Source: Sarea resinae
Lineage: Eukaryota
Assembly: GCA_026026165.1 (NCBI GenBank)
Contig: JAPEUD010000027.1
Span: 1-64,000 of the forward strand
DNA: 64,000 nucleotides
Reading direction: 5' to 3'
The position numbers and the translations under genes are program-made. Of the stretch, positions 25,811-64,000 are shown one piece after another. Within the stretch, counting starts at the first letter, position 1. Every line of letters begins with the position of its first letter. The notes below the pieces were generated by a model. That model was given only the letters and a program-made list of their open reading frames with translations, made no database searches and was not told where the DNA came from.

Positions 25811-26299
25811 TTCCTAGCTTATTTTCGAGGGTCTTAATACATGTTGCGGAGTCTTTGGTGTTTTAGGCTTTTGGTCCGCGCGCCGCGCGGTGTTCTTCGA
25901 TATCATCGTGTTCCTGGGGTGTACGCAGTAAACGGATCCATCTTTAGGGAGACGCGACGACTCGCTTCATCTGGTAATACTTTGTACTTTGTACTTCTCT
26001 CTGAAAATTGACGGTCCCTCAGGTAGGACCGTTAATTTTTCGCTTATGTAAACAAGTACGTACTACTAGATTATGTAATCCACTATTCATGTAAATCTTT
26101 AAAGTTCCTAAAAGATTTATTCACCTAAGGTAGGTAGGTAGGTATTCCTTAACTACTAGGTATATATATAACACCTCTCTCTCTCTCTTCTCTTTTTTCT
26201 CTAACTAAAAACACTACTACTACTACTATAACTACTACTTTGCTATACTCTACCTTTCTCTCTCTAAAAATTTTTTTTAAAAGCTATAAAATAGAATTT

Positions 26300-28600
26300 A
26301 AATATAAGTACTTCTCTAGCTAATAGCTTTATAGCTAGCACCTCTTAACATTGCAAACTATAACTGCTAAGTAAGTTTATTTTCTTATTAAATGCTTAAC
26401 ATTAATTTTCGATATTTTTAAAGTTTTACTTTTCTTTTTTTCAGAATTTTCAAAGCTTTTCTTCCTTGTATTTTACAATTCTTCTGCCTTTTTTTTCATA
26501 ATTTTTGCAACTTTTTAACCTTTTTTCAAAATTTTTAAAATTTATTTTTTTGTTAATTTTCAGAATTTTCAAATCCTAACTTTAAAATAGCTAATACAAA
26601 GCAGCCTATAAGGCTTATTAGAGCAAGGATACCTGCCTAGACTTAGAGGATATAGACAGTCTCTTTATAGAAGAACTTCTTAGGTAAGCTTTTAACTTTC
26701 TTTATCTAGTATTTATTTATTTAATAGAATTTTTAGAAATTACAAATATTATGCTAATTAATTTTTTAGATACAACTTCTAGGTTAAGGATTGTAAGAGC
26801 TTCTCTCTTTATTACTTATACTAGGCCTTAAACACCTCTTACCTTATAGAAGTAAAAGAGCCTCTTAGCTTTAACAATAAGGACTTGCTAAAGTGTAGCT
26901 ACCTATACAAGGTAAGTCTAAAAAATTTCAAATTTTTCATTAATTTTTAAAAATATTGAATTTTTCTAAACTTTTAAGATTTTTAAAATTAATGTCTAAC
27001 TCTAATGTAGCTATCTGCCTTTAAGATATAGATAGTTATACAAAAGATAAGCAGGTAGGAAAACAACGCTAAAGTAAGTATAATTTTCTATTTAATTCTT
27101 TTTTTTCTATTTCTTTTCTATTTTTTTCTTTTTTTTTAATTTTTAAAATTTACTAAATTTACTTTTATAGTACCCTAACACTATGTTACAGAAGACTAAA
27201 AATGCTATATAGGATGCAATAAAGATCCTATATAGTGGCAATTTTATAGTTAGAATGCTTTTCTCTCTAATAAGCTATAGATAAGCTATAGAATAGGCAC
27301 TAAAGCGTAATATCCTTAAGGAAATATAGGTAGCTAGTAGATAGCCTCTCTACTTATATTTTTAGAAATTTATAAAAATTGATAATCTCTACTCTTAATA
27401 CTATAACCTGTGAATTAAGGCTTAATATATAGAATTTTAAATAAGTAGATATTTTAAGAATTCTAAAATATAAAATAAGGAAAGTAATTTAAGATTACTA
27501 AAAATTAACTGAGCTTAAATTAGCTTACATAATACAATTTCTTTGAAATTCCCTTAAATCTTTTACCCTACTCTACTACCTATCTACTAGCTATTTCACA
27601 TTATATCTATTAACTATAGCCTTTGTTTTAATCTCTTATATCTCTTATTATAACTTAGACATATAAGTATACCTCTAGAAAGACCTTAGTAGGATAGGAT
27701 ATAAAGACTCTAAGGAAGATAACTGTATTGTAAGTAAAACAAAATACTTTAATAATGTTAAAGATCTTAGATTCTTTAAGATTTCTAAGAATTAATCTTT
27801 AGATTTAGCTAGAGAAAGAAAGCTTATATAGCTTGTTAGAGAAAGAATGCTTACTCTTCTCTTAATAGTAAGGATTCTAAAGAACAACTTAGGTAAGATT
27901 ATTAAATTCTTTCTTTTAATTTTTAGATATTTCAAAATTTTTAAGACCTAACCTATCTCTTTCTACAAGGTAAATTTCTAAGTAAGAGAAAGGAAATCCT
28001 TCTCTCTTTACTAGTTCTATTAGACCTAGAATGCTACTCGCTCTATTAATAAGAATAAGCTAAAAGAGATAGATAAAGAGAATTACTTAAAGTGCAGATA
28101 CCTCTATAAAGTAAGTCACTATCTTTTAAGATTGTTAAAGATTTACAGAAATCACAAATTTTAAAAATTAATATATTGCCTTAAGCCTATCCTTAAATAA
28201 TACAGTATCTCTTATACTAATAGCTTTTAGCCTTCTATGCTTAAACTTTAGATAAAGGATAATAATCTTATGCCTATAGTAAGGATCTCTTTCTACAGTT
28301 CTGTTTATAAAGATATCTAAAATTTGTTTTTTAATATTCTTAAATTTCTCTTTTAGCAATATCTAATATTCTTCTAGAATCCTAAGACTATACACTAAGG
28401 TGTAAAGCTTGCATTTTAGGCTACTTTAGTAGCCTTATATAGAGAGTTTAATGTTTTAATACTCTTTAATACTTAACTATATACTAGCACAATTCTTAAG
28501 AGAATTATAGAAAGGATTATTAAGGATATAGTACCTTCTAATCCTATTATAAAGGAAGAGAAAGAGAAAGAGGATATAGAGGAAGTATAATAGCGTATTT
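26300..28600 (+). pseudogene. RIP-destroyed multi-exon gene of unknown family inside the large element
   Basis: GTAAG donors at 26371, 26684, 26912, 27074, 27893 and 28111, most followed by CTAA[CT] branch sites and AG acceptors (e.g. 26590, 26769, 27010, 27170), with higher-GC exon-like spacers. Confidence 0.5.
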
Positions 28601-29577
28601 TTATAATTTCTAGTTTTCTCTACTCTACACTTCTATTTTTCAGCATTTCTTTTTATATTAGTTAAAAGTTTTGTTAGTAGTATACTAATAAATTCTGATT
28701 TTTTTTAGGTAAAAACAAAAAACAGAAATCAAAAAAAACGAAAACGCAACTAGAAAGATTGCTAGGATTATCTTGATTCTAAAGGTTATGCTTATAATAT
28801 TAAAGAGAATAGATTATATAAAATTAATGCAAAGAGTCTAAAAGAAACTAGTATAATGTTAGATTAATTTGCTTAAGAGTTTCCTAATACTGTAGTAGTA
28901 AAGAGTTAGAGAAGAAATATTAAACAAAGAATAAAAGAAAAGTAGATAGTAGATTCTTTAAGATCTTTAAAATATATAAAGATGTTAAGATCTTTAGAAT
29001 CTTTAAATCTTATAGATATTAAAATCTTTAAAACTTTTAAGACTAAGTATAATTATAAGATCTACTATAATGCTAACAATATTTCTCTATCTAACTTTAA
29101 GGATTTAAAAAATCCTCTTATCTATAGATTAGGTTATTGTTATAGCTTAATAAATAACATATAATTATAAGATTGTTAAAGTTTATACTCTACCTACTCT
29201 AATCACATAATTTTTAAATAGGCTATCTTTTTTCTTATACAAAATATTAGCACCTCTCTCTTTAAAATAAATAGGTCCTATATAGTGTTAGATTAATCCT
29301 AATATCTAGGAGGTTATAATAAAAGGCTTCTAAAAATTGCTTACTTATCTAGAAGAAAATAGTATTAGACAATATTTAGATATTCTAAAAACAGCTATTT
29401 AAGTATTTTAAAAAACTTATAAGAGGCTTATTCTCTAGAACAACCTAATTATATAATGTAACTTAACAGAATAGATAGCTCTTTATAATTCTAGCATATC
29501 TTATCTACTTAAGTAGAGTATAAACTAGATAGAGATATTTATCTTCTCTATTCTAATAGAGATAAAAGAGTTAAATC

Positions 29578-29886
29578 TATAAGAGCTACTACTAATAGAG
29601 GTGCTGTATAGAGTTTAGCGCAGCGTAGGGTAACTACCTAGTGTAGTTTAGCAACGTTTAGGTAAGCTAAGCAGAGTTATTAGTTATATAGATTAATAGA
29701 GGCGCTAGCTATTAGGGCTAGCGTTTAGTGCAATTACAAAGTCAGTGCCTACTAGCAATATCTATATCTATAGTATTAGTTTTATATCGCTAGAGTGACA
29801 CTAGCACGCTGCAATGCACTAGCCTATTTAATCATGCTATTCCTACCTACTCTACTATAGCTAGAAGCCTAGGAGGTAGTCTAACA
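29578..29886 (+). repeat. 5' LTR of chromovirus copy 1
   Basis: Matches 36665-36973, 56158-56466 and 58499-58807 apart from C>T/G>A changes; termini TA(from TG)..CA. Confidence 0.93.
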
Positions 29887-32800
29887 ATTCTAAACGCTCT
29901 ACTAACACAGCAGTAGACTAGGCGAGATAGTGACAATAAATATATATAATACTCTAAGGGCTCTTAATACTCTACTAGGTGAAAGAGCTAATAGAGACAA
30001 TAGTAAGACAGTAGCAAGCTAGGTAGAAGGCGAGGTTAAGGAGCCTGTCTCTAACTAGATCACTAATTAATTGCTAGACTAAATACAGTAAGAGTATAAC
30101 GCTAAAGAGCAGTAGGCTTAATATTGTTGACTCTAGAGAGAGATAGCCTAGTTCTATATAAAACAGCAACTATAAGCACTTGTATAAGTATTGCAGCTAG
30201 GATAAGGCCTTGCAGCCGCTACGCTAGCACCTTGTATCACTAACTAGACTAAAATCTAAGCTCTAGAGCTATTTACAAGCAAGACAATTAAGGAGTATAA
30301 TGAATTTATCTGATCCTATAAGATAGCGTTCTAACTAGGAGCTATTACAGACAAAAGTGATAATATAGCAAAGGTGCTATATGCTATACAGTACCTAAAA
30401 GACGAACTAGCGCTAGTATAGCACTAGGTTAAAGAATCTACTAAGAAAGACACTTATACCTAGGATAAATTTGTCTTATTCCTACTAGACTAAGTAGAAG
30501 ATCTAGTAAATTAGAGTGGTTTAATATTACAGCTATACTATAACGCTACACAAGGGCCGCACTAGAGCATTAATAGCTTTATAGCTTTCTTAGAACAGAT
30601 TAAACTAGAAGTGCTAGAAGGATAAGACATCCTTAAAGAGCAGCAATACAACTTGTTCTATACTAAGATCTAAAGTAAAATTTACTAGGAACTGCTCTAA
30701 ACTCTGCTAATACTACAAAAGTAGAGCGCTGCTATAGCGTCAGCAAATTAAGTAGAGGAACTCCTTTATATAAGTAATAAAGAGAATAAGAATAAGAACC
30801 TTAATCTATCTAAGCTAGATAATAAGCGATAGTATAGCGATAGTGTAAAGAAGAGAAAGAGTTAGAATAAATAAAGAACTAAATAAAAGTTTAATCCTAC
30901 TAAACATAAGGGCAAAAGCCTACCTCTATAAGAACAAAAAACTTCTGCTTAGCCTAAGGATAATAAAGGCAATAAGTCTATATAGTAGCCTTAACAGCTC
31001 TCTAATAAGGAGTATTGCTACAGGTAAGAAGGCAACCTTTACCTAAACTATAGCTAAGAGAGCTACTTTGCTTCTACTTGTAAGAACAAACGCAACAATA
31101 AGCCTACGCTAGCTTTATAACTAGAGCTAGAACCCTACACTATTTGCTATCTTAGTATAGGAGAATCTTAAGGAGCTCTAACTCTAAGATTAGAGACGTC
31201 GCTAACTATTTACACCTCTAGTAGTACAGCAGATAGCACTACCTTAATTGATTTAGAAGCAGAAGCTTCTCTAGTTTTGCAATCATAGATTAAGGAGTAT
31301 AGGATCTCTAAGGATAAGCTTAGGCAGCTACCTAGCGCAGTGATAGTAAACAGCTTGTAAGTAGCGATCTATAGCTAACACTAATTAGAAATACAAGTCG
31401 CTAATAGTAATAGTGTAAGGAAGACAGTGTAGTGCTAGTTCTTTACCTACAACTTTAATAGTCCTCTATTCTTACTTAGGTATCTATAGCTGTCCTTATA
31501 CCGCTACAATATGCGTTAGTTAGAAGGTAAATTTAGCTACGTTAAGCCTATAGATAAGCCTAGGCTTAGTAAGGAACATTAGAAGAAACATTAGCTAAAC
31601 TGCTAAGGGATTATAGTAGTGCCTAAACCTATAGAGGCAGTGAAGCTTTGCTAGGTCAGCGCTAGTAATAAGATACCTAAACAGTATAAGGAATTTGCTT
31701 CTATCTTTAGCAAAGAGAAAGCTAGCTAACTTCCTAAGCATAGCCTAGCTAACTATGCTATTAAGTTAGAGAGTAAAGACTCTCTCTATAGTCTTATATA
31801 TCTATTATCCTAGAAAGAATTAGGTATTCTACAGACCTACCTAGATAATAGCTTAGCAAAGAGGTAGATTACTCTCTCTATAAGCCCTATTAGTGCGCTA
31901 ATCTTATTTGTGCCTAAGAAGGATAGTAGCTTACAACTTTACATTAACTACTAGGCGTTAAACAAGGTCACTATTAAGAATCAATACCTATTACCCCTTA
32001 TTTCTAAGCTTATAGACTAAATAAGCAGTGCTAAAGTTTTTTTAAAACTAGACCTAAAGGATACCTACTACTATATAAGGATCTGCAAAGGCGACAAGTA
32101 TAAGATAGCGTTCTGCACTTATTACAGCTAGTTTAAATATAAGGTTATGCCCTTTAGATTAGCTAATGCACCTGCTACATTTTAGAGCTATATTAATTAT
32201 GCGTTATAAGGCCTAGTTAATGTCTGCTGCGTTATCTATCTAGATAACATTCTTATATACTCTAATTCACCTAATAAGTATAAGAAGTATATACACTAGG
32301 TCCTTAAACAGCTATCAACCTATAGCCTATATATAAAGCCCTTAAAATGTGTCTTTAAAGTGTAGGAAGTTGATTTCTTAGGATTTGTTATTAGGACTAA
32401 TAGTATCGCGATAGAGAAGAGCTAGGTAGACACTATAAAAGAATAGCTAGCCCTTAAGACCTATTATAACCTCTAAGTCTTCCTAGGATTTACAAATTTC
32501 TACTAACAGTTTATAGAGAAATACTTTGTTAAAGCGCTGCTATTAACTAGCCTGCTTGCTAGGAGTAAGAACAGAAAGAAAAGCAGTCTATTCTACTTCT
32601 CTAAGGAAGCTAAAGAAGCATTTAAAGCCCTAAAAGAAGCTTTTACAACGGCGCCTATACTGCGCTACTACAATCTAAAGAGGCAGATATAAGTAGAAAC
32701 TAACGCTTCTAGATTTGCTGTTACAGCAATTTTATCCTAGCTAGTCAAGGATAAACAAAGTGTAACAACAGCGTTAAGGTAGCACCTAGTTGCATACTAG

Positions 32801-35589
32801 TCTAGAAAGCTTACTAATACTAAATTAAGATATAAAGTGCATGATTTAGAGTTGCTAGCTATTGTAATAGCTTTTAAGCAATAGCACTACTACTTAGAAA
32901 AGGCTAATTACCCTATTAAGGTCTTAACTAACTATGTAAATCTACGCTACTTTATAACAACAAAGGAGTTAACCTATTGCTAGGCTAGATAGGCTAAACA
33001 GCTAGCAGCGTATGATTTTAAACTTATATATAGAGTAGAGAAAGCTAATCTAGCTAATAGGCTGTTGCAGCGCCCTAATTACAAGGTAAAGACATAGGGT
33101 CTAGAAGTAATGCTTTTTACTTTGTAGCAGAAGCTGCAGAACCTGTGTATATTAAAGAGAGATAGCACTGCGCTAGTGATCTAAAACCTTCTTACTAGAA
33201 CAGATAATAAGCATTTAGGCAAAATAGGCGCTAATACACTAAAGGATAATATGCATCTATAAGGGATTAAAAACCTCTCTAGGTTAGAGGATAACACTCT
33301 ACCTACTATTAATAAGCGATAGCAGCGCACTAGGATAACACCTAGTTTAAGCGCAAAGGATAATGTGTATCTATAAAGGATTAAAACCCCTTCTAGGTTA
33401 TAGGATAACACTTAGCCTAATATTAAAGAGCAATAGAGAGGCACTAGAGTGACACTTAGGCCTAGCCTAAATAACAATGCTAATAAGCTAGTATTAGGAG
33501 ATAAGTTTAAACACCTCTATATAAGACAAGTAGTGCATAAGGCAGCTGCTAATAAAAGAGTGTATAAGCTGCTAACAGGCTAGCTGCTTAATATTATCCT
33601 TAGGACTTAGTAAGAAGATTATTTCGCTAAGGAAAAGATTAAAAGCATTCTTACTAAGGAGGTTACAGGCTAAGAAAAGTAGAAAATAGACTCTATAGGC
33701 CTGCTGCGCCTAGAAGGCAAAGCATATATGCTGTGTAATACAGCTATTAGGTTAGAAATTATAAGAATAAACTATAATAACTTGTTTAGTAGCTACTTTA
33801 GTGCTAAGAGAATAACAAAGGTAATCTAGTGTAAATACTAGTAGACTAATTTAGCTAAGGATGTTAAAGAATATATTAATAAGTGCGATATATATTAAAG
33901 GGTCTAGGTGCCTAGGCATCGCCTATATAGCGAGCTATAGTTGTTACCTATGCCTTACTAGTTGTTTAAAGAAATCACTATAGATTTTATTACAGGCCTA
34001 CTACTAAGCAACATAAGAGATTATAAGGCCTGTGATATAATAATAGTAGTAGTTAACTGCTATACAAAGATAGCAAAATATACTCTATACTAGACGAATC
34101 TAAATGCCGCTATACTTGCAGACATATTTATTAATATTATAACAACAGTGTATAGCAATCTAAAGCGCATTGTATTAGATAGAGGCAGTGTATTTGCAAG
34201 CAAATTTTAGTTAGCTATATGCTATTAAATGCGAATTAAGAACTAGCTTAGCACTGCCTTCTACCTGCAGATAAATAGCTAGACTAAGAGGTAAAACTAG
34301 ATGTTAGAACACTACTTATAGTGCTATATAAGCAGCTGCTAGGACGACTAAGCCTTGCTGTTACCTATAGCTAAGTATGCATACAATAATAGCATACATT
34401 TATCTATAGCAATGTCACTCTTCTATGCTCTATATAGCTACAACCTAGATCTGCAACTTAATATTATAGACAATGCTATAGAGAGAGAGGTGCTAGCAGC
34501 GAATAAGCGCCTTAACATCCTCTAAGAGGTAAGATAAAGACTAGAAGAGGATCTTACTAAGGCATAGCAGTACTAAGCTAAGTAGTATAATAGGAAACAT
34601 AAGCTAATGCAATATAAAAGAGGCGATAGAGTTATACTATTAGCGCGCAACCTTAGCACTATACACCTAAGTAAGAAGTTAGAACACTGCTATATAGGCC
34701 TATTTGTAGTATTTAACCTTGTAGGCAAGCAAGCCTACTAGTTATAGCTCTCTAAGGCTTATAGATCTATCTATCTTATATTTTATATATCCTTACTTAA
34801 GCGCTACTACAGCGATAGCAATACCTTAGACTAGCACTTTAAGCTAGTTAATAGCTAGGTTAAGTAGATTGTTAAGAAAATCCTAGGCTATAGAGTACTT
34901 AAGAGAGAGTGATAATATCTAGTTAAGTAGAAAGGAGCTCTAGTAGATAACACTAGCTAGGAGCTAGCAGAACACCTAGCAAACGCTATAGACCTAGTAT
35001 AAGATTATAAACAGCACTTACTCTCTAACTAGTATAGAGGCCTAGCGAACAAAGAATAGGATGCTAGTGTGCTATTAACTAAGCCTTATAGTTAACTAAG
35101 GAAGCGACTACTTAGTGATAGCGCTATAGAGGCGACAGCTAAGAGGCTAAGAGGCTGCCTAAGGAAGAATCTACTACTCTATAAGGAACCTCTAGCTAGC
35201 CTAGAGATGCTAGTAACAAAACGCCTACAAGGAAGGCTATAGAAGTATAGCCTAAAGCTATAGGTAATTGTAAGAAGAAGACCTTACAGCTGTCTTAGAA
35301 AGGACACGCTGTTATAGCACTAGTAAAGAGCTGTTATTAGAACTCTTTCTACCTCTTTTACCTACAAAGGTTTTTAAGTGGTTTTAGCAAGCTAATGTAG
35401 AGGTAGGCTTGTAATGCGATTGCATGCTAATAGTGTACAGTCTCTATAGAAGGCTATTAGGCTATAGGGCTACAATGCTACAGTTATAAGAGGAGATAAA
35501 GTTATAAAAAAGAAAGTGAAATTAAACCTCTAGCGCTATCCTAGCGCGAACCTAAAGCTATCTAGTATACAAAGGAAATAGAAAGAACT

Positions 35590-36255
35590 ACTATCCTATT
35601 ACTAACTGCTTTGCCTTGCCTAGCCCTAACTAGCCTAATTGCTAGACCTCTCTAGAGGTGTAGTTGTATTATTATTATCCTTATCCTTACTCTTACTAGC
35701 GCGTGTGATTAAAGGTAGGTCAAACTATAAGCTTTAGTTAGCGCAGCCCTAAGCTAGTAATAAGCTAGGCTAGCTTATAGTATAGCAAAGAATGTTATTC
35801 AGTCTCTTAACACTGTTAGCTAGGCGCTTAGTAGTAATAGCAATGTGTAGAGCGTTGTCTAAGGGATAGCAGTTAGTAGTATTAATATAGGCTTTAACGC
35901 TCCTTGTAAAACGCCGCTGTTTAGCTTAAAGAGCACCTAACACAGGCTCTTTAGCTAGGTTATTGTCTGTAAAAGCTGCTACTACATCTGCTGCTTTAGC
36001 TAGCTAATTAAACTACTTATAGAACTTATACAGCACTTGTGCAGAGCCTAGTTAGAGCCTGCCTAGAGCTATATTAAGAGCATTGCTTACTTTATCGCAC
36101 TTCTTATAGAGCTAGGCGCAGCGTGTACACTTTGCTAAGGAGCTAGGACAACTGCACACAATGTCTAGGATAGCACTAAGGCACTTAGCACAGCGTAGAT
36201 AGAGCTCTTAATAGAGCTTAAGAGGCTCTTTTAGATTTAGATAGGGCTTATACAT
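35590..36255 (-). pseudogene. Antisense accessory gene relic in the chromovirus 3' region, six-cysteine (Zn2Cys6-like) domain, one intron 36090-36037
   Basis: ATG at 36255; minus-strand translation (Y<C)LRCAK..VCS..KCTRCA*LYKKCDK; GTAAGC donor and CTAAC branch site; downstream exon continues in a coding-like frame. The 3' end is approximate. Confidence 0.6.
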
Positions 36256-36664
36256 ATATAGCAGAATAATAGAGGCGCGATTAAGAACGTTTATAATAGG
36301 TAGATAAGTATATAGAATGTACCTAAAAACATAGTGCAAAAAGTTTAATTGTGCGCGCGCGCACTAGATCACCTACGTTTTATACCTACACACCTATAGC
36401 TAAGCGACCTCTAAGCGATAGAGAGAATGCCTAATACAGACAGTTTAAAGCATTTACTCTGTCTATTCACTGCTACTACTCTAGCGCAGCGTTTAGCAAA
36501 CTAAGCAAATAGGATAAAGAACTCTCTTTATTATCTATACAAATTCACTAGTTGCAGCAAATAGCAACGCTACTAAGGCGCTAGCGAGATAAAGACTTAA
36601 CACTATAATGTTATACATTGCGAACAAAGGACTTAGAGGACTAGGTCCTAAGAGAGGAGGTAAT

Positions 36665-36973
36665 TATAAGGGCTACTACTAATAAAGGTGCTGTATAGAG
36701 TTTAGCGCAGTGTAGAGTAACTACCTAGTGTAGTTTAGTAACGATTAGGTAAGCTAAGTAGAGTTATTAGTTATATAGATTAATAGAGGCGCTAGCTATT
36801 AGAGCTAGCGTTTAGTGCAATTACAAAGTTAGTGCCTACTAGCAATATCTATATCTATAGTATTAGTTTTATATTACTAGAGTGACGCTAGCACGTTGCA
36901 ATGCACTAGCCTATTTGATTATGCTATTCCTACCTACTCTACTATAGCTAGAAGCCTAGGAGGCAGTCTGATA
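36665..36973 (+). repeat. 3' LTR of chromovirus copy 1
   Basis: Direct repeat of 29578-29886, preceded by the purine tract AAGAGAGGAGG. Confidence 0.93.
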
Positions 36974-39900
36974 AAATCTCTATATTAATATTAGTAAATA
37001 TTAAAAGTTATATTTCTTTAATATTCTTAAAAGTTACCTCTATTTTAATGTGTTTTTTAAAAGAGTAGAGTAAGCTTAATTTTACCTCTTTCTTTATTAA
37101 TAACCTTAATATCCTTTGCTTAAATCTTAAGGACCTTATTAAATTAAAGAAGATAGAGAAATGCAATAATATATATGCACTATAGTTAAGCTCTTATCCT
37201 TGCTCTAGCCTAGTAGTATATTTTAGGATCTTTAAATATTTATAAGTTCTTCTAAGATTAAGCTTGTAGCTGCTATAAGAGAGGAACTACTTTAAATTAG
37301 CTGTTTAAGCTATAAAGATCTTTTATATTCCTTAATATAATAGATCTTACACTTTAAGAAACCTCTCTAGCTTAGACCTATATAGTATAAGTAGAATGTT
37401 TAGAAAATATAAAGTTTAAAGAAAACAAAGAATTACTCACTTTTTAACGTCTTAGACTATATATATAGCAAGATACAAACTAGGATAGAGAGGGATTTCC
37501 TTTCTATTTACTACTAGTAAGCTGTTTCTATAGCTAATATCTTTCTTCTAAGAAATACCTATATCTATAGCTTATAGCAGCTTAGATCTTTATACTATAA
37601 GAATATATTTAACTTATACACTTCTTTACAAATTTCAAAGAATTATCTAGTGTGTTACAGTAATAATAGATATATATAGCAATAAGTTAAGGTGTAAAGG
37701 CATTAAATTGCATTGCTTTCTAAAGGTTTTCTAAGCTAAACTTAGATTCTATAAAGTTTTAAAACTCTTTCTAGATACTAAGAACAATTAGTAAGTATAG
37801 CTAATACTTTTGTAATATTTAAAGAATAGGTTTAGAAAAGAAGATTCTTAAAGAATATTAAGGATATCTTATGTTTTGTATTCTGCTAAGGTTTTCTTTA
37901 ATAGAGCATTCTCTAATGCCTTTTAAAGAGTAACTTGTAATTAAGATAAAGTGTCTTTAACTTCTTACTAGCTTTCTTCTAGATCATTAGAAATTTTAAG
38001 ATCTGCACTATCTAGAATGTTGTTAGAGAAATTTAACTTTTATAAAAGATATGTAAAAAGCTATTCTATCTTTAGATAGAGTAGTAATAGATAACTTTAG
38101 ATATCTAAACGTGGATTTCTATAGTGTATAGACAACTGCATTTCCTTTTTTCTTCTATTACTTTGCAATTAGCTCTAATTAATTGTGCTACCCTATACAA
38201 AATTTTTAGCACACTTAGAAATTATCTGTACTTAAAATTAGTATTAATAAAAAATAGAATAACTAAAAAATAGAATAACTAAAAAACTTTCTATGCTTTA
38301 CTCTAGGTAGAATACTAGAATCCTAATATAGGTCTAAAAAAACAAGTTAGAAAGAGTAAGCAAAGGCTATAGGCATTGCAAAATTCTTAAGCAGCAGAGA
38401 ATTCTTCTATATTACAAGCATATTTAATTAATCCTAATTTTTAATTATCTTAACAAAAAACAGAGCTGCTATTATAGGCTAATAAGTATAGTGCAGTAAG
38501 AGAAAAGACTATAAGAGAAATTATGTAAGCTTACTCTATAACTAAACTATATAGTATAATATTAATTTAATGTAGTGTAGAATAAGAGAAGAATATAAAA
38601 AATCTGAATTCTATAGCTACTTTAGCACCTATAGATCCTCTAAGTTAAGAAACTAAAATTTCTAAAGATTTTCTATAGCAATCTTAGAAGTCTTTTAATA
38701 TTTATGTCTATTATCACACTAATTATACCTACTGTGTTCTTTAGTCTAATTAAGCTAAAGAGCCTCTTAATATCTAAGTCTAGCAGGCTATTTAGAATAC
38801 AGCTTGAAATATCTCTAGATAACCTTTAGAATCTTTAAATAATAAGAGAAAACTATTGTCTCTACTTAATCAGGCTGCTAAGCCTAAGTATTTTAAGATT
38901 CTAGAGCTTAACCTACATTGCTTAGTCTCTAATATCTCTAATCTACTACTAGTTTCCTATTTGTAAAATCTAGAAAGGCTTTTTTAAGATTAGGAATCTT
39001 TAGAAATTCTAGTTCTTTAAGGAATTCCTATACCTTTAAAGTATTAGAGTACTATGTATTAGAATAATGTTCTAGCTGCTTAGAAATTCTTTAAGAAGAA
39101 GTAGAGTTAGATATAAGTATATATATCTATAGAATCTTTATTATCTAGTAAGTAAGGAAAACCTTTAGAAATACTAAGTTTAACATAACTTTTAAGAAAT
39201 TTAAAAGGTATATATTAATCTAATGCTAATTATAAGTCTCTACTTAGTATATTGTTAAAGCATTCTATACTCTAGACTAGAGCTAGGATGCATTTTAGAA
39301 CCTATATAGAAAAGATAGTAATAATAGTAAAATTCCTATAGGATAGACTACTATAGTTAAAAACATTTAGAATTATTAAAAGATTGTTAATAAGAAAGAT
39401 ACTAATCTTATAAGATCTAAGTATAGCTCTACCTTTAAGGATTATTTCTTTAGTGTTAAAGAGAGAAAGAAAGTAGTTCTAAAAGATCTAAAGCATATTA
39501 TAAGGCACTATAGGCAGAAGAAAGATAGATAATAATAGTAGGATACTATTAACTAGAGTTATATATCTTATTTAAAGTTTACAAAAATAATATATCTGTC
39601 TTGCTATAATATATATAATAAATATAATATATATTTATTTAGGACACATATAATTATACCTCTCTAATTAGAAGAACAATACTAAGTTCTAGATAATACA
39701 TATATTCTAGAATAGAACAGCTAGAAACTATAGTTATAAGAAAGATATTTAAAGCTTCTTAGAGAAAAATTAAGATTCTTAAAGATTTAGTTAGAGACTG
39801 TTAATTTTTTAATGCAAAGCACTAATAGCTGTAGTTTATACTAGAGCTTGCTATAAAGCAAGGATTATAAAAAACAGAAAATTAATAGTCCTTACTATTA

Positions 39901-40527
39901 ATTTAATCTAGGACTATTAATTAGACAATTAAATCTTGCTAGACTTTAGAAATTACAAAAATTTTCGCCTATTATCTTCTAGTGTCTTTATATCTTTCTA
40001 CTCTATAATTTACCTCTAGGTAGTGTAATTCTTAAAAATTTTCTTAAAAATACTAGAATACTACTATTCTCTTTATAAAAATCTCTGGCTTTAATATACT
40101 AAGATTTCGCTCTATAAAGACTAATATTTGAAAATTCTAAGTATAATCCTCTAGCAGCCTAGGTTGTATTACCCTAAGGAATTTCGGCCGAGGGTCACAT
40201 AGGCTTCAGGGGTTACCCGGAGGGGGCTAGGGGCGGACCGGGGGGGGACCGTCAATTTATCGCGGCGAATCCCTACTTCGTACGTCCGAGGTCCTCCAGC
40301 CTGACCTCGTACCTACCCTGTACGGGATCGGAGCTTCTGAACGAAGTTAGAGACAGACGACCCTGCGTAGGGAATAATGCGTAACAGGAATTGTTATCAC
40401 AACGTCCGGCCAGATCTCTTCCGCTCCCACTCTCGACCTCTTTGTCACCTTCTATTGCCTGTTTGAACTCTCCGTCCACCAGGTTCGCCGTTGGCGGCGA
40501 TTCCGGTGGAAGTCTCTTCGTTTCGCC

Positions 40528-56157: not shown

Positions 56158-56466
56158 TATAAAGGCTACTACTAATAGAGATGCTATATATAGCTTAGTA
56201 TAGTGTAGAGTAACTACCTAGTGTAGTTTAGCAATGTTTAGGTAAGCTAAGTAGAGTTATTAGTTATATAGATTAATAGAGGCGCTAGCTATTAAAGCTA
56301 GCGTTTAGTGCAATTATAAAGTTAGTGCTTACTAGTAATATCTATATCTATAGTATTAGTTCTGCATTGCTAAGATAACACTAGCACGCTATAGTGCACT
56401 AGCCTATTTAATTGTGCTATTCTTACCTACTCTACTATAGCTAGAAGTCTAAGAGGTAGTCTAATA
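56158..56466 (+). mobile_element. Lone LTR of the same chromovirus family
   Basis: Aligns over 309 bp with the other three LTRs and is more heavily RIPed; no internal domain follows. Confidence 0.9.
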
Positions 56467-56472
56467 ATTCTA

Positions 56473-61400: not shown

Positions 61401-64000
61401 TTCCTAGGATTCGCGAATTTCTACTAACAGTTTATAGAGAAATACTCTGTCAAAGCGCTGCTATTAACTAGCCTGCTTGCTAGAAGCAAGAACAGAAAGA
61501 AAAGCAGTCTATTCTACTTCCTTAAGGAAGCTAAGGAAGCATTTAAAGCCCTAAAAGAAGCTTTTACAACGGCGCCTATACTGCGCTACTACAATCTAAA
61601 GAGGTAGATACAAGTAGAAACAGACGCTTCTAGATTTGCTGTTGCAGCAATTTTATCCTAGCTAGTCAAGGATAAACAAGGCGTGACAACAGCGTTAAGG
61701 TGGCACCTAGTTGCATACTAGTCTAGAAAGCTTACTAATACTAAATCAAGATATAAAGTGCATGACTTAGAGTTGCTAGCTATTGTAATAGCTTTTAAGC
61801 AATAGCGCTATTACTTAGAAAGGGCTAATTACCCTATTAAGGTCTTAACTAACTATGCAAATCTACGCTACTTTATAACAACAAAGGAGTTAACCTGTCG
61901 CTAGGCTAGATAGGCTAAACAGCTAGCAGCGTATGATTTTAAACTTATATATAGAGTAAGAAAAGCTAATCTAGCTGACAGGCTGTCGCGGCGCCCTAAT
62001 TATAAGGTGAAGACACAGGGTCTAGAAGTGATGCTTCCTACTCTACAGCAGAAGCTGCAGAACCTGTGTATGTTGAAAGGAGACAGCACTGCGCTAGTGA
62101 TCTAAAACCTTCTTACTAGAACAGATAATAAGTATCTAGGCGAAATAGGCGCTGATACGCTAAAGGATGATATGTATCTACAAGGGATTAAAAACCCCTC
62201 TAGGTTAGGGGATAACACTCTACCTACTGTTAATAAGCGACAGCAGCGCGCTAGGATAACACCTAGTCTAAGTGTAAAGGATAATATATATCTACAAAGG
62301 ATTAAAACCCCTTCTAGGTTATAGGATAAAACCTAGCCTAATGTCAAAGAGCAATAAGGAGGCACTAGAGTGACACCTAGGCCTAGCCTAAATGACAATG
62401 CTAATGAGCTAGCATTAGGAGATAAGTTTAAACACCTCTATATAAGACAAGCAGTGCATAAGGCAGCTGCTAATAAAAGAGCGTACAACCTGCTAACAGG
62501 CTAGCTGCTTGACGTTATCCTTAGGACTTAGTAGAAAGATTATTTCGCTAAGGAAAAGATTAAAAGCATTCCTACTAAGGAGGTTACAGGCTAAGAAAAG
62601 TGGAAAATAGACTCTATAGGCCTGCTGCGCCTAGAAGGCAAAGCATATGTGCCGCGTGATACAGCTATTAGGTTAGAAATCATAAGGATAAACTATAATA
62701 ACTTGTTTAGTAGCTACTTTAGCGCTAAGAGAACGACAGAGGTGATCTAGCGTAAATACTAGTAGACTAATTTAGCTAAGGATGTTAAAGAATATATTAA
62801 TAAGTGCGATATATATCAAAGGGTCTAGGTGCCTAGGCATTGCCTATACAGCAAGCTACAGTCATTACCTATACCTTACTAGCTGTTTAAAGAAATCACT
62901 ATAGATTTTGTGACAGGCCTGCCGCTAAGCAACATAAGAGATTGCAAGGCCTATAACATAATAATAGTAGTAGTTAACTGCTATATAAAGATAGCGAAAT
63001 ATATTCTATGCTAAACGAATCTAAATGCCGCTATGCTTGCAGACATATTTGTTGACGTTGTAACAACAGCGTATAGCAATCTAAAGCGCATTGTATTAGA
63101 TAGAGGCAGTGTATTTGCAAGCAAGTTTTAGTTAGCGATATGCTATTAAATGCGAATTAAGAACTAGCTTAGCACTGCCTTCTACCTGCAGACAGATAGC
63201 TAGACTAAGAGGCAAAACTAGACGTTAGAACACTACTTGCAGTGCTATATAAGCAGCTGCTAGGACGACTAGGCCCTGCTGTTACCTATAGCTAAGTATG
63301 CATACAATAATAGCATACATTTGTCTATAGGAATGTCACTCTTCTATGCCCTATATAGCTACAACCTAGATCTGCAACTTAATATCGCAGATAATGCTAT
63401 AGAGAGAGAGGTGCTAGCGGTAAACAAGCGCCTTAACGTCCTCTAAAGGGTAAGACAAAGACTAGAAGAGGATCTTGCTAAGGTATAGCAGTACTAAGCT
63501 AAGTAGTACAATAGGAAACATAAGCTAATGCAATACAAAAGAGGCGACAAAGTTATGCTGTTAGCGCGTAACCTTAGCACTATACGCCTAAGCAAGAAGT
63601 TAGAGCACTGCTATATAGGCCTATTTGTAGTACTTAACTCTGTAGGCAAGCAAGCCTACTAGTTACAGCTCTCTAAGGCTTATAGATCTATCTACCCTGT
63701 ATTTTATATGTCGCTGCTTAAGCGCTACTACAGCGACAGCGATACCTTTCACTAGCACTTTAAGCTAGTTAATAGCTAGGTTAAGTAGATTGTTAAGAAA
63801 ATCCTAGGCTATAGAGTACTTAAGAGAGAACGATAATATCTAGTCAAGTAGAAAGGAGCTCTAGTAGATAATACTAGCTAGGAGCTAGCAGAGCACCTAG
63901 CAAACGCTATAGACCTAGTACAGGATTATAAACAGCACTTACTCTCTAACTAGCATAGGGGCCTAGCGAACAAGGAATAGGATGCTAGTGTGCTGTTAAC
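58499..64000 (+). mobile_element. Second, less-mutated chromovirus copy (5' LTR 58499-58807, gag-pol through the chromodomain), truncated by the window end
   Basis: Collinear with copy 1 at an offset of about 28.92 kb. CLNC..(H)..C at about 59961, LID(S)GA at about 60165, YLD(D) at 61158, ETDAS at about 61617, integrase (M)DFVTGLP, chromodomain YLVK(W)KG..S(W)E(P). Confidence 0.95.

Follow-up and report, generated by a model that had tools for sequence, protein, structure and literature searches.

The window analysed here, the first 64,000 nucleotides of a contig of Sarea resinae, carries ordinary fungal housekeeping genes (Vps54, MCM5, a DEAD-box helicase, SF3a60/Prp9, a GCP subunit, and others). 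Two AT-rich islands break up this gene-bearing DNA, and the first of them holds a complete LTR element (copy 1). Its 5' LTR (29578–29877, plus strand) is the reference copy of direct repeat family D1, and its 3' LTR (36665–36964, plus strand), of the same family, is 95% identical to it. Between the two LTRs, a RIP-mutated gag-pol of Ty3/gypsy chromovirus type forms a single plus-strand frame (29878–35242, frame 2, the end near 35240 being approximate), in which Pfam identified RVT_1, RT_RNaseH, RT_RNaseH_2, Integrase_H2C2, and SH3_Tf2-1. Pfam returned no Chromo call in the RIP-mutated window pol; tblastn alignment with the intact pol proteins of two related loci described below (L001 and L003, in which Pfam Chromo reached 1e-16 and 4e-12, respectively) extended to residue about 1810, through the chromodomain. 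With RT, RNase H, and integrase in order and a C-terminal chromodomain, the host element reads as a Ty3/gypsy chromovirus. After the chromodomain, the plus strand of the window at 35096–35240 holds 48 stop-free, Arg/Lys-rich codons, which suggests a pol with a basic C-terminal tail resembling the RRRK-type ends of the L001 and L003 pol. A tandem duplication of about 114 nt (75 to 79% identical) within the pol frame is found in both window copies of the element (33240–33479 and 62161–62400) and is therefore a feature of the element family. The DNA flanking copy 1 (26000–29577 and 36965–40000) is 25% G+C, has strong RIP indices, and shows no similarity to the element; it probably represents older, more degraded repeats that were the target of the insertion.

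RIP has left a heavy imprint on the element. TpA/ApT is 2.04, versus 0.62 in the flanking genes, and (CpA+TpG)/(ApC+GpT) is 0.68, versus 1.24; the pol frame contains 7.3 stops per 100 codons. By these indices, we regard the window element as heavily RIP-mutated. A second copy runs from 58499 to the end of the window (64000) and shares 92.4% identity with copy 1 across a stretch of 5502 bases. It leaves the window at the equivalent of position 35079, short of the accessory gene that is the subject of this study, so the antisense region is single copy within the window. A solo LTR of the same element family (56158–56472, about 88.6% identical to the copy 1 LTRs) sits 2.0 kb ahead of the 5' LTR of copy 2 (58499).

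Downstream of pol, which ends near 35240, and ahead of the 3' LTR, which starts at 36665, the minus strand carries an antisense gene spanning 36294 to about 35599. The frame that the original prediction placed here, starting at 36255, was confirmed on rereading and translating the sequence; unspliced, it contains 16 stops, every one TAA or TAG. Exon 1 (36091–36294) encodes a basic N-terminus and a six-cysteine module, the first cysteine of which now reads TAT in place of TGT, as had been proposed; all four database homologues described below have cysteine at that position. Intron 1 (36037–36090, 54 nt) has the GTAAGC donor at 36090, the CTAAC motif (as CTCTAAC), and the CAA at the acceptor position that had been predicted. 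It is real, because the homologues P0002 and P0003, which are correctly spliced, lack those 18 codons. In P0004 and P0005, an in-frame intron has been read through at the same site and opens with Val-Ser, as expected from a GTxAGx donor. Exon 2 (35779–36036, 86 codons) encodes a helical region that aligns without a gap to P0002. The uninterrupted downstream exon of about 140 codons envisaged in the original prediction did not survive this comparison, since it contains a second 54-nt intron (35725–35778) that had been missed. This intron appears as a further 18-codon insertion in the window relative to P0002 and has an ATAAGC donor (GTAAGC would be expected in intact copies), a GCTAAC motif, and a TAG acceptor. 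Exon 3 (35596–35724), delimited by alignment with the C-terminus of P0002, is the formerly acidic tail, now rich in Lys and Asn, and closes with three stops in a row (35604–35596).

The ATG at 36255 is present in frame, as had been noted, but its counterpart in P0002 is Val13. Ahead of it lie 13 further open codons that, after reversal of C>T and G>A changes, match the P0002 N-terminus from an ATA codon at 36294–36292; the original start was probably at 36294, converted from ATG to ATA by RIP. Upstream of this position, the stretch of about 370 bp before the 3' LTR (36295–36664 on the minus strand) is presumed, from its sequence, to hold the gene's own promoter and includes TATAAAA at 36384–36378. 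On the plus strand, a purine-rich tract immediately ahead of the 3' LTR is probably the polypurine tract.

With both introns removed, the window product aligns with P0002 without a gap over 182 residues, of which 89 are identical. When positions reachable by undoing a C>T or G>A change are added to the identical ones, the count rises to 145 of 182, whereas shuffled pairings average 30 and reach at most 46. All nine exonic stops sit where P0002 has Arg or Gln. A caveat that some cysteine codons might be RIP products of arginine codons holds in part: extra cysteines are present, at Val, Lys, Lys, or Arg positions of P0002, but a RIP-type change yields Cys from only some residues. In the window copy, the start codon and the first cysteine are thus gone, one intron has lost its acceptor and the other its donor, nine premature stops have appeared, and the acidic tail has turned to Lys and Asn. 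It is a dead copy with no present function.

Other copies of this stretch were examined in one public DNA run, X1, which is probably from the source sample. Positions 34800 to 36664 were wholly covered by 781 contig pieces, which differed from the window at 239 variant places (230 transitions and 9 transversions). Since so many pieces are present and their differences are mostly transitions, the antisense segment belongs to a multicopy element; the original prediction had considered that the segment might be unique to this copy, and it is not. Summed depth was lower across 35680–36310 than over the rest of 34800–36664. Base-level reading covered 40 of the 239 variant places, and 16 of these 40 lay in the gene. 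The RIP-derived base is the one found in the window at 11 of the 16, and two of the 16 variants bring back the P0002 residue. At 36015, where the window has a stop, the other copies have CAG in 92% of their summed depth. None of this stretch was present in two runs of other organisms from the same study.

A word-indexed protein search with the RIP-mutated query gave no matches. An exhaustive phmmer search of 1.84 billion representative proteins, in which the frame was entered with X at its stops, returned four matches at E values up to 1e-3. The best was P0002 (E 2.1e-34), a 194-amino-acid hypothetical protein labelled as a Sarea resinae MAG, and the other three had E values of 4e-5 to 6e-4. 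Six cysteines are present in all four, in the C-x2-C-x11-C-x8-C-x2-C-x6-C arrangement that had been read from the window, with a third spacer of x7 in P0005. Profile searches extended the family to 19 and then 32 proteins, for a combined total of at least 44 with the window's own excluded, and the family-wide spacing is C-x2-C-x10/11-C-x7/8-C-x2-C-x6-C. Labelled members span four classes of Pezizomycotina, namely, Sareomycetes (Sarea resinae), Lecanoromycetes (Pleopsidium flavum), Coniocybomycetes (Chaenotheca gracillima), and Leotiomycetes (Hyaloscypha hepaticicola, Helotiales), and the remainder are metagenomic. All members are "hypothetical" or unnamed, and none of the 44 is labelled brtn or Botrytis. 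No Pfam domain was found in P0001 to P0005 or in the 19 members searched, and scans of viral_contigs and prokaryote genome_contigs revealed no relative.

Several features of these proteins point to a repeat-borne family. Eight of the first 19 members lie on contigs of 6.3 to 10.6 kb, which is about the size of one element; three others are on large contigs of 139, 183, and 882 kb. In at least five members (P0019, P0022, P0023, P0031, and P0033), cysteine positions have become Tyr, a change that we read as the RIP signature on TGY codons and thus as the mark of a gene carried by repeats. For P0004 to P0011, P0013, and P0015, the automatic gene calls mostly run through short introns or end inside them, so that the corresponding database entries misrepresent the intron sites and the acidic tail is often missing from them.

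The genomic context of relatives was read from metagenomic loci. A scan with a 10-member alignment (a 16-member alignment was too diverse) yielded six loci, L001 to L006. L001 bears the P0007 gene at 99% identity, L003 and L004 bear P0010-like genes at about 80%, L005 retains a short motif remnant followed by stops, and L002 and L006 are too short for context, which leaves three lineages (the window, L001, and L003) in which the context could be read. In L001 and L003, the strand opposite the gene carries an uninterrupted pol (RNase H, Integrase_H2C2, rve, SH3_Tf2-1, and Chromo) that is convergent with it; the antisense convergent layout is therefore seen in all three contexts with enough pol-side sequence. 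The spliced products are intact, with 186 amino acids and two introns (45 and 44 nt) in L001 and 177 amino acids and three introns (52 nt each) in L003. The original prediction, which had allowed that the consensus might have no open spliced frame and had proposed a search for homologues inside LTR elements, is borne out in these two loci, where the gene has the same place and orientation as in the window.

The introns of the relatives agree with those inferred for the RIP-mutated copy. All introns of L001 and L003 have GT..AG boundaries, and every one contains a branch motif resembling CTAAC, CTGAC, or CTAAG. Counterparts of window intron 1 lie at the same position (45 nt in L001 and 52 nt in L003), and those of intron 2 lie at 1408–1451 in L001 and 2559–2610 in L003. 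The first and last introns of both loci therefore fall at the same protein positions as the window's two and are shared by the three lineages. TATA-like boxes occur about 120 to 165 bp upstream of the ATG in L001 and L003. In L001, at 560–660, two adjacent direct repeats that each contain ACTGGTCCGTG lie about 250 to 350 bp upstream of the ATG and could be a regulatory repeat or part of an LTR.

The pol proteins of the three lineages are 33 to 56% identical, and the accessory proteins are 27 to 34% identical; between L001 and L003, the values are 56% for pol and 34% for the accessory protein. At closer range, the accessory genes of L003 and L004 differ at 8, 7, and 23 sites by codon position, 19 codons differ synonymously and 14 nonsynonymously, and both genes retain the full set of six splice sites and the same lengths for the three introns. 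This excess of third-position and synonymous differences indicates purifying selection on the protein. L004 itself shows no pol, and its similarity to L003 ends 138 bp past the stop of its intact accessory gene (regions compared: 1781 onward in L004 and 2823 onward in L003). Truncation or rearrangement of the element, a nested insertion, or a chimeric assembly may account for this. Because the gene has the same place and orientation in L001 and L003 and is multicopy in run X1, it is not a one-off insertion. One-off transduction and unrelated nested insertion were both rejected, given the site, orientation, and introns shared by the three lineages and the many copies in X1. By sequence comparison, the gene belongs to the element, has been inherited with it over deep divergence, and has been selected as a protein. 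The claim of an antisense, intron-containing element gene is thereby upheld, and we hold with high confidence that it is a conserved, spliced accessory gene, encoded antisense between pol and the 3' LTR, of Pezizomycotina chromoviruses, with the window copy inactivated by RIP.

The intact product is predicted to have about 180 to 195 amino acids: the six-cysteine module sits in a basic N-terminus, a region of three helices follows, and the tail is acidic and disordered. Over the first 70 residues, the net charge comes to +10 in L001 and +14 in L003; over the last 35, it is −10 and −11, respectively. An AF2 model of P0002 built from 16 sequences has pLDDT values of 92 to 97 across residues 30 to 120; helices span residues 70 to 88, 96 to 123, and 127 to 154, the compact cysteine module packs on them, and the tail is disordered. 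The secondary structure of the cysteine module differs between two AF2 models.

The original prediction also described the domain as similar to the fungal Zn2Cys6 zinc cluster, and here the results diverged from it. Pfam Zn_clus matched none of the 19 members, even at E values up to 10, and none of P0001 to P0005. The canonical spacing is C-x2-C-x6-C-x5-12-C-x2-C-x6-8-C, from which the family deviates in the second spacer alone, with 10 to 11 residues instead of 6. A PDB sequence profile search gave only coiled coils, with E values above 0.3. Foldseek and VIA searches with the whole model retrieved only generic helical hairpins, at Z scores up to 5.9, with no Gal4-type chain, and the isolated 45-residue cysteine module gave no VIA match at a Z score of at least 2, Foldseek E values of at least 3, and again no Gal4-type chain. 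Atlas structure neighbours include Zn_clus clusters, at low TM scores of 0.24 to 0.36. Membership in Zn2Cys6 (PF00172) is thus not supported by sequence profiles; a divergent relation of the cysteine module to Zn2Cys6 is possible. The two have in common six cysteines, a second half (C-x7/8-C-x2-C-x6-C) that fits the canonical spacing, and the position of a fungal N-terminal module followed by helices and an acidic tail, a miniature of the Gal4 layout. In contrast, the family's second spacer lacks the basic residues typical of that position in Zn(II)2Cys6 proteins, and neither a Pfam nor a Gal4-fold match was obtained.

Genes antisense to gag-pol have precedents, in fungi as in plants. Zhao et al. 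reportedly described, in 2011, brtn as an antisense gene of Boty-like (BcGypsy1) retrotransposons in Botrytis cinerea and Sclerotinia. Botrytis belongs to the Helotiales, as does one member of the present family (from Hyaloscypha), although none of the 44 members carries the brtn name or a Botrytis label. In excerpts of four papers, brtn is an extra gene antisense to gag-pol in Botrytis Boty elements (PMC8365987, PMC4227169, PMC5987419, PMC7264820), and in one of them Boty is grouped with elements having an extra gene between pol and the 3' LTR (PMC7264820). By these descriptions of brtn, both cases concern an extra gene antisense to gag-pol in a fungal Ty3/gypsy chromovirus. Passages of the same review list plant counterparts, termed aORF-3R, in maize Grande (gene23), rice RIRE2, Silene Retand, and Phaseolus PvRetro13; state that no function is known for extra genes lying antisense in the interval from pol to the 3' LTR; and report that Grande GENE23 is nuclear (PMC7264820). 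Extra open reading frames (eORFs) of the Tat lineage of plant LTR retrotransposons are the subject of a further paper (PMC4408406). The gene described here shares several marks of an aORF-3R as judged from its sequence: it sits in the interval separating pol from the 3' LTR, it is encoded on the strand opposite to gag-pol, and its protein is conserved across lineages. Like the plant genes as the review excerpts present them, it has the same position and orientation, a presumed promoter of its own, and conservation within element families (PMC7264820). Unlike them, it comes from another kingdom, has no sequence relation that we found, and lacks their domains (PMD, Tr28, and SMC-like); conserved introns are not mentioned in those excerpts. 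The "unusual chromovirus architecture" of the original prediction must accordingly be qualified, as Boty and several plant elements are already published with an antisense gene placed between pol and the 3' LTR. Our literature search on antisense or additional ORFs of fungal chromoviruses found no description of this six-cysteine family within the limited collection searched; the kind of architecture is known, and the family is a new and well-defined case of it.

We propose a model in which the gene, convergent with pol and interrupted by two short introns in the window element and three in one sister lineage, would be expressed from its own promoter within the stretch of about 370 bp between its start and the 3' LTR. 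An intron that is antisense to the genomic RNA stays unspliced there and survives reverse transcription, which is the principle of antisense-intron retrotransposition reporters. The introns of this gene, being antisense with respect to that RNA, would pass through retrotransposition unharmed, and their conservation therefore implies transcription of the opposite strand from integrated DNA copies. The cysteines would bind zinc, the product would act in the nucleus as a nucleic-acid- or chromatin-binding regulator, and the acidic tail would recruit or modulate host machinery, in trans, on the element's own expression. Many transcriptional activators, and some chromatin proteins, are built in this way, with a basic metal-binding module joined to an acidic tail, and it is because of this layout that we favour a nuclear regulator acting in trans.

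Retroviral accessory regulators would be analogues of such a protein, with HTLV-1 HBZ as the antisense, spliced one. HBZ, which is encoded antisense and spliced, is a small nuclear regulator that combines a DNA-binding part with an activation domain, and as a retroelement protein of this spliced, antisense kind it provides the best functional analogy. It differs in being a bZIP protein of a vertebrate retrovirus transcribed from the 3' LTR, with no homology to the present family, the promoter of which seems to be internal. Excerpts of the review cited above likewise place the antisense HTLV promoter in the 3' LTR (PMC7264820). The proposal of a nuclear regulator draws on composition and analogy, and, taken by itself, we advance it tentatively; taken together with the anatomy of the gene, the overall account is one towards which we lean on balance.

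We rank the regulator first among the possible roles and, second and with less conviction, a protein that, instead of activating transcription, shields the element from RNA silencing (quelling), heterochromatin, or RIP. Several plant RNA viruses use small, zinc-binding proteins rich in cysteine as silencing suppressors, and the accessory protein is likewise small, cysteine rich, and fast evolving (its 34% identity against 56% for pol between L001 and L003) and is confined to a RIP-targeted repeat; its acidic tail could, moreover, bind histones. We nevertheless consider a counter-defence function unlikely, as the PDB, Foldseek, VIA, and Pfam searches brought up no similarity to a known suppressor or chromatin factor, and the window copy and several other members have been hit by RIP all the same.

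Less probable still is that the protein serves replication directly, as a cofactor in the particle or preintegration complex with a part in nuclear import, RNA chaperoning, or integration targeting. The basic N-terminus resembles a nuclear localisation signal, cysteine modules are frequent among retroelement nucleic-acid chaperones, and such roles are proposed for plant antisense ORFs in the excerpts of PMC7264820; the six-cysteine spacing, however, differs from that of the Gag CCHC knuckle. The same excerpts raise, for antisense ORFs, the idea that the antisense transcript is the main product, which would pair with the genomic RNA in a double-stranded RNA-based self-regulation and leave the protein secondary (PMC7264820). 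We give this slightly less credence again, because the gene lies downstream of pol without overlapping its coding part and because constraint is seen at the protein level, in the 23 third-position differences versus 8 and 7, the invariant cysteines, and frames that stay open at about 30% identity.

That the gene is a host gene, either transduced or belonging to a family near which elements insert, is improbable. The three members on large contigs might be host genes; against this, three element lineages with pol 33 to 56% identical agree in the gene's position, orientation, and intron sites, the gene is multicopy in run X1, and several members have RIP-type changes. Finally, a chance cysteine pattern in noncoding, RIP-mutated DNA, conceivable in that RIP can turn CGY into TGY codons, is refuted by the phmmer E value of 2.1e-34 to an independent protein and the gapless alignment with P0002.

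In sum, the antisense frame of this element belongs to a family with a clear conserved design: the six cysteines are invariant, the helical core is modelled with confidence, the tail is acidic, and the introns are conserved. This family is invisible to current annotation, where all members are "hypothetical" and most gene models are wrong through unspliced short introns. Returning to the regulator that we tentatively prefer, a chromovirus clade present in at least four Pezizomycotina classes might encode a trans-acting nuclear regulator, with an undescribed six-cysteine zinc module and an acidic effector tail, from a spliced antisense gene; such a protein would be a fungal equivalent of HBZ, Tas, and similar accessory regulators of retroviruses, with brtn as a possible member of the family, and we offer this fuller picture as a speculative one. 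Intact copies exist in unmutated elements and could be cloned and tested. If the protein does regulate the element or blunt genome defence, it would bear on how LTR elements persist in fungi that possess both RIP and RNA silencing.
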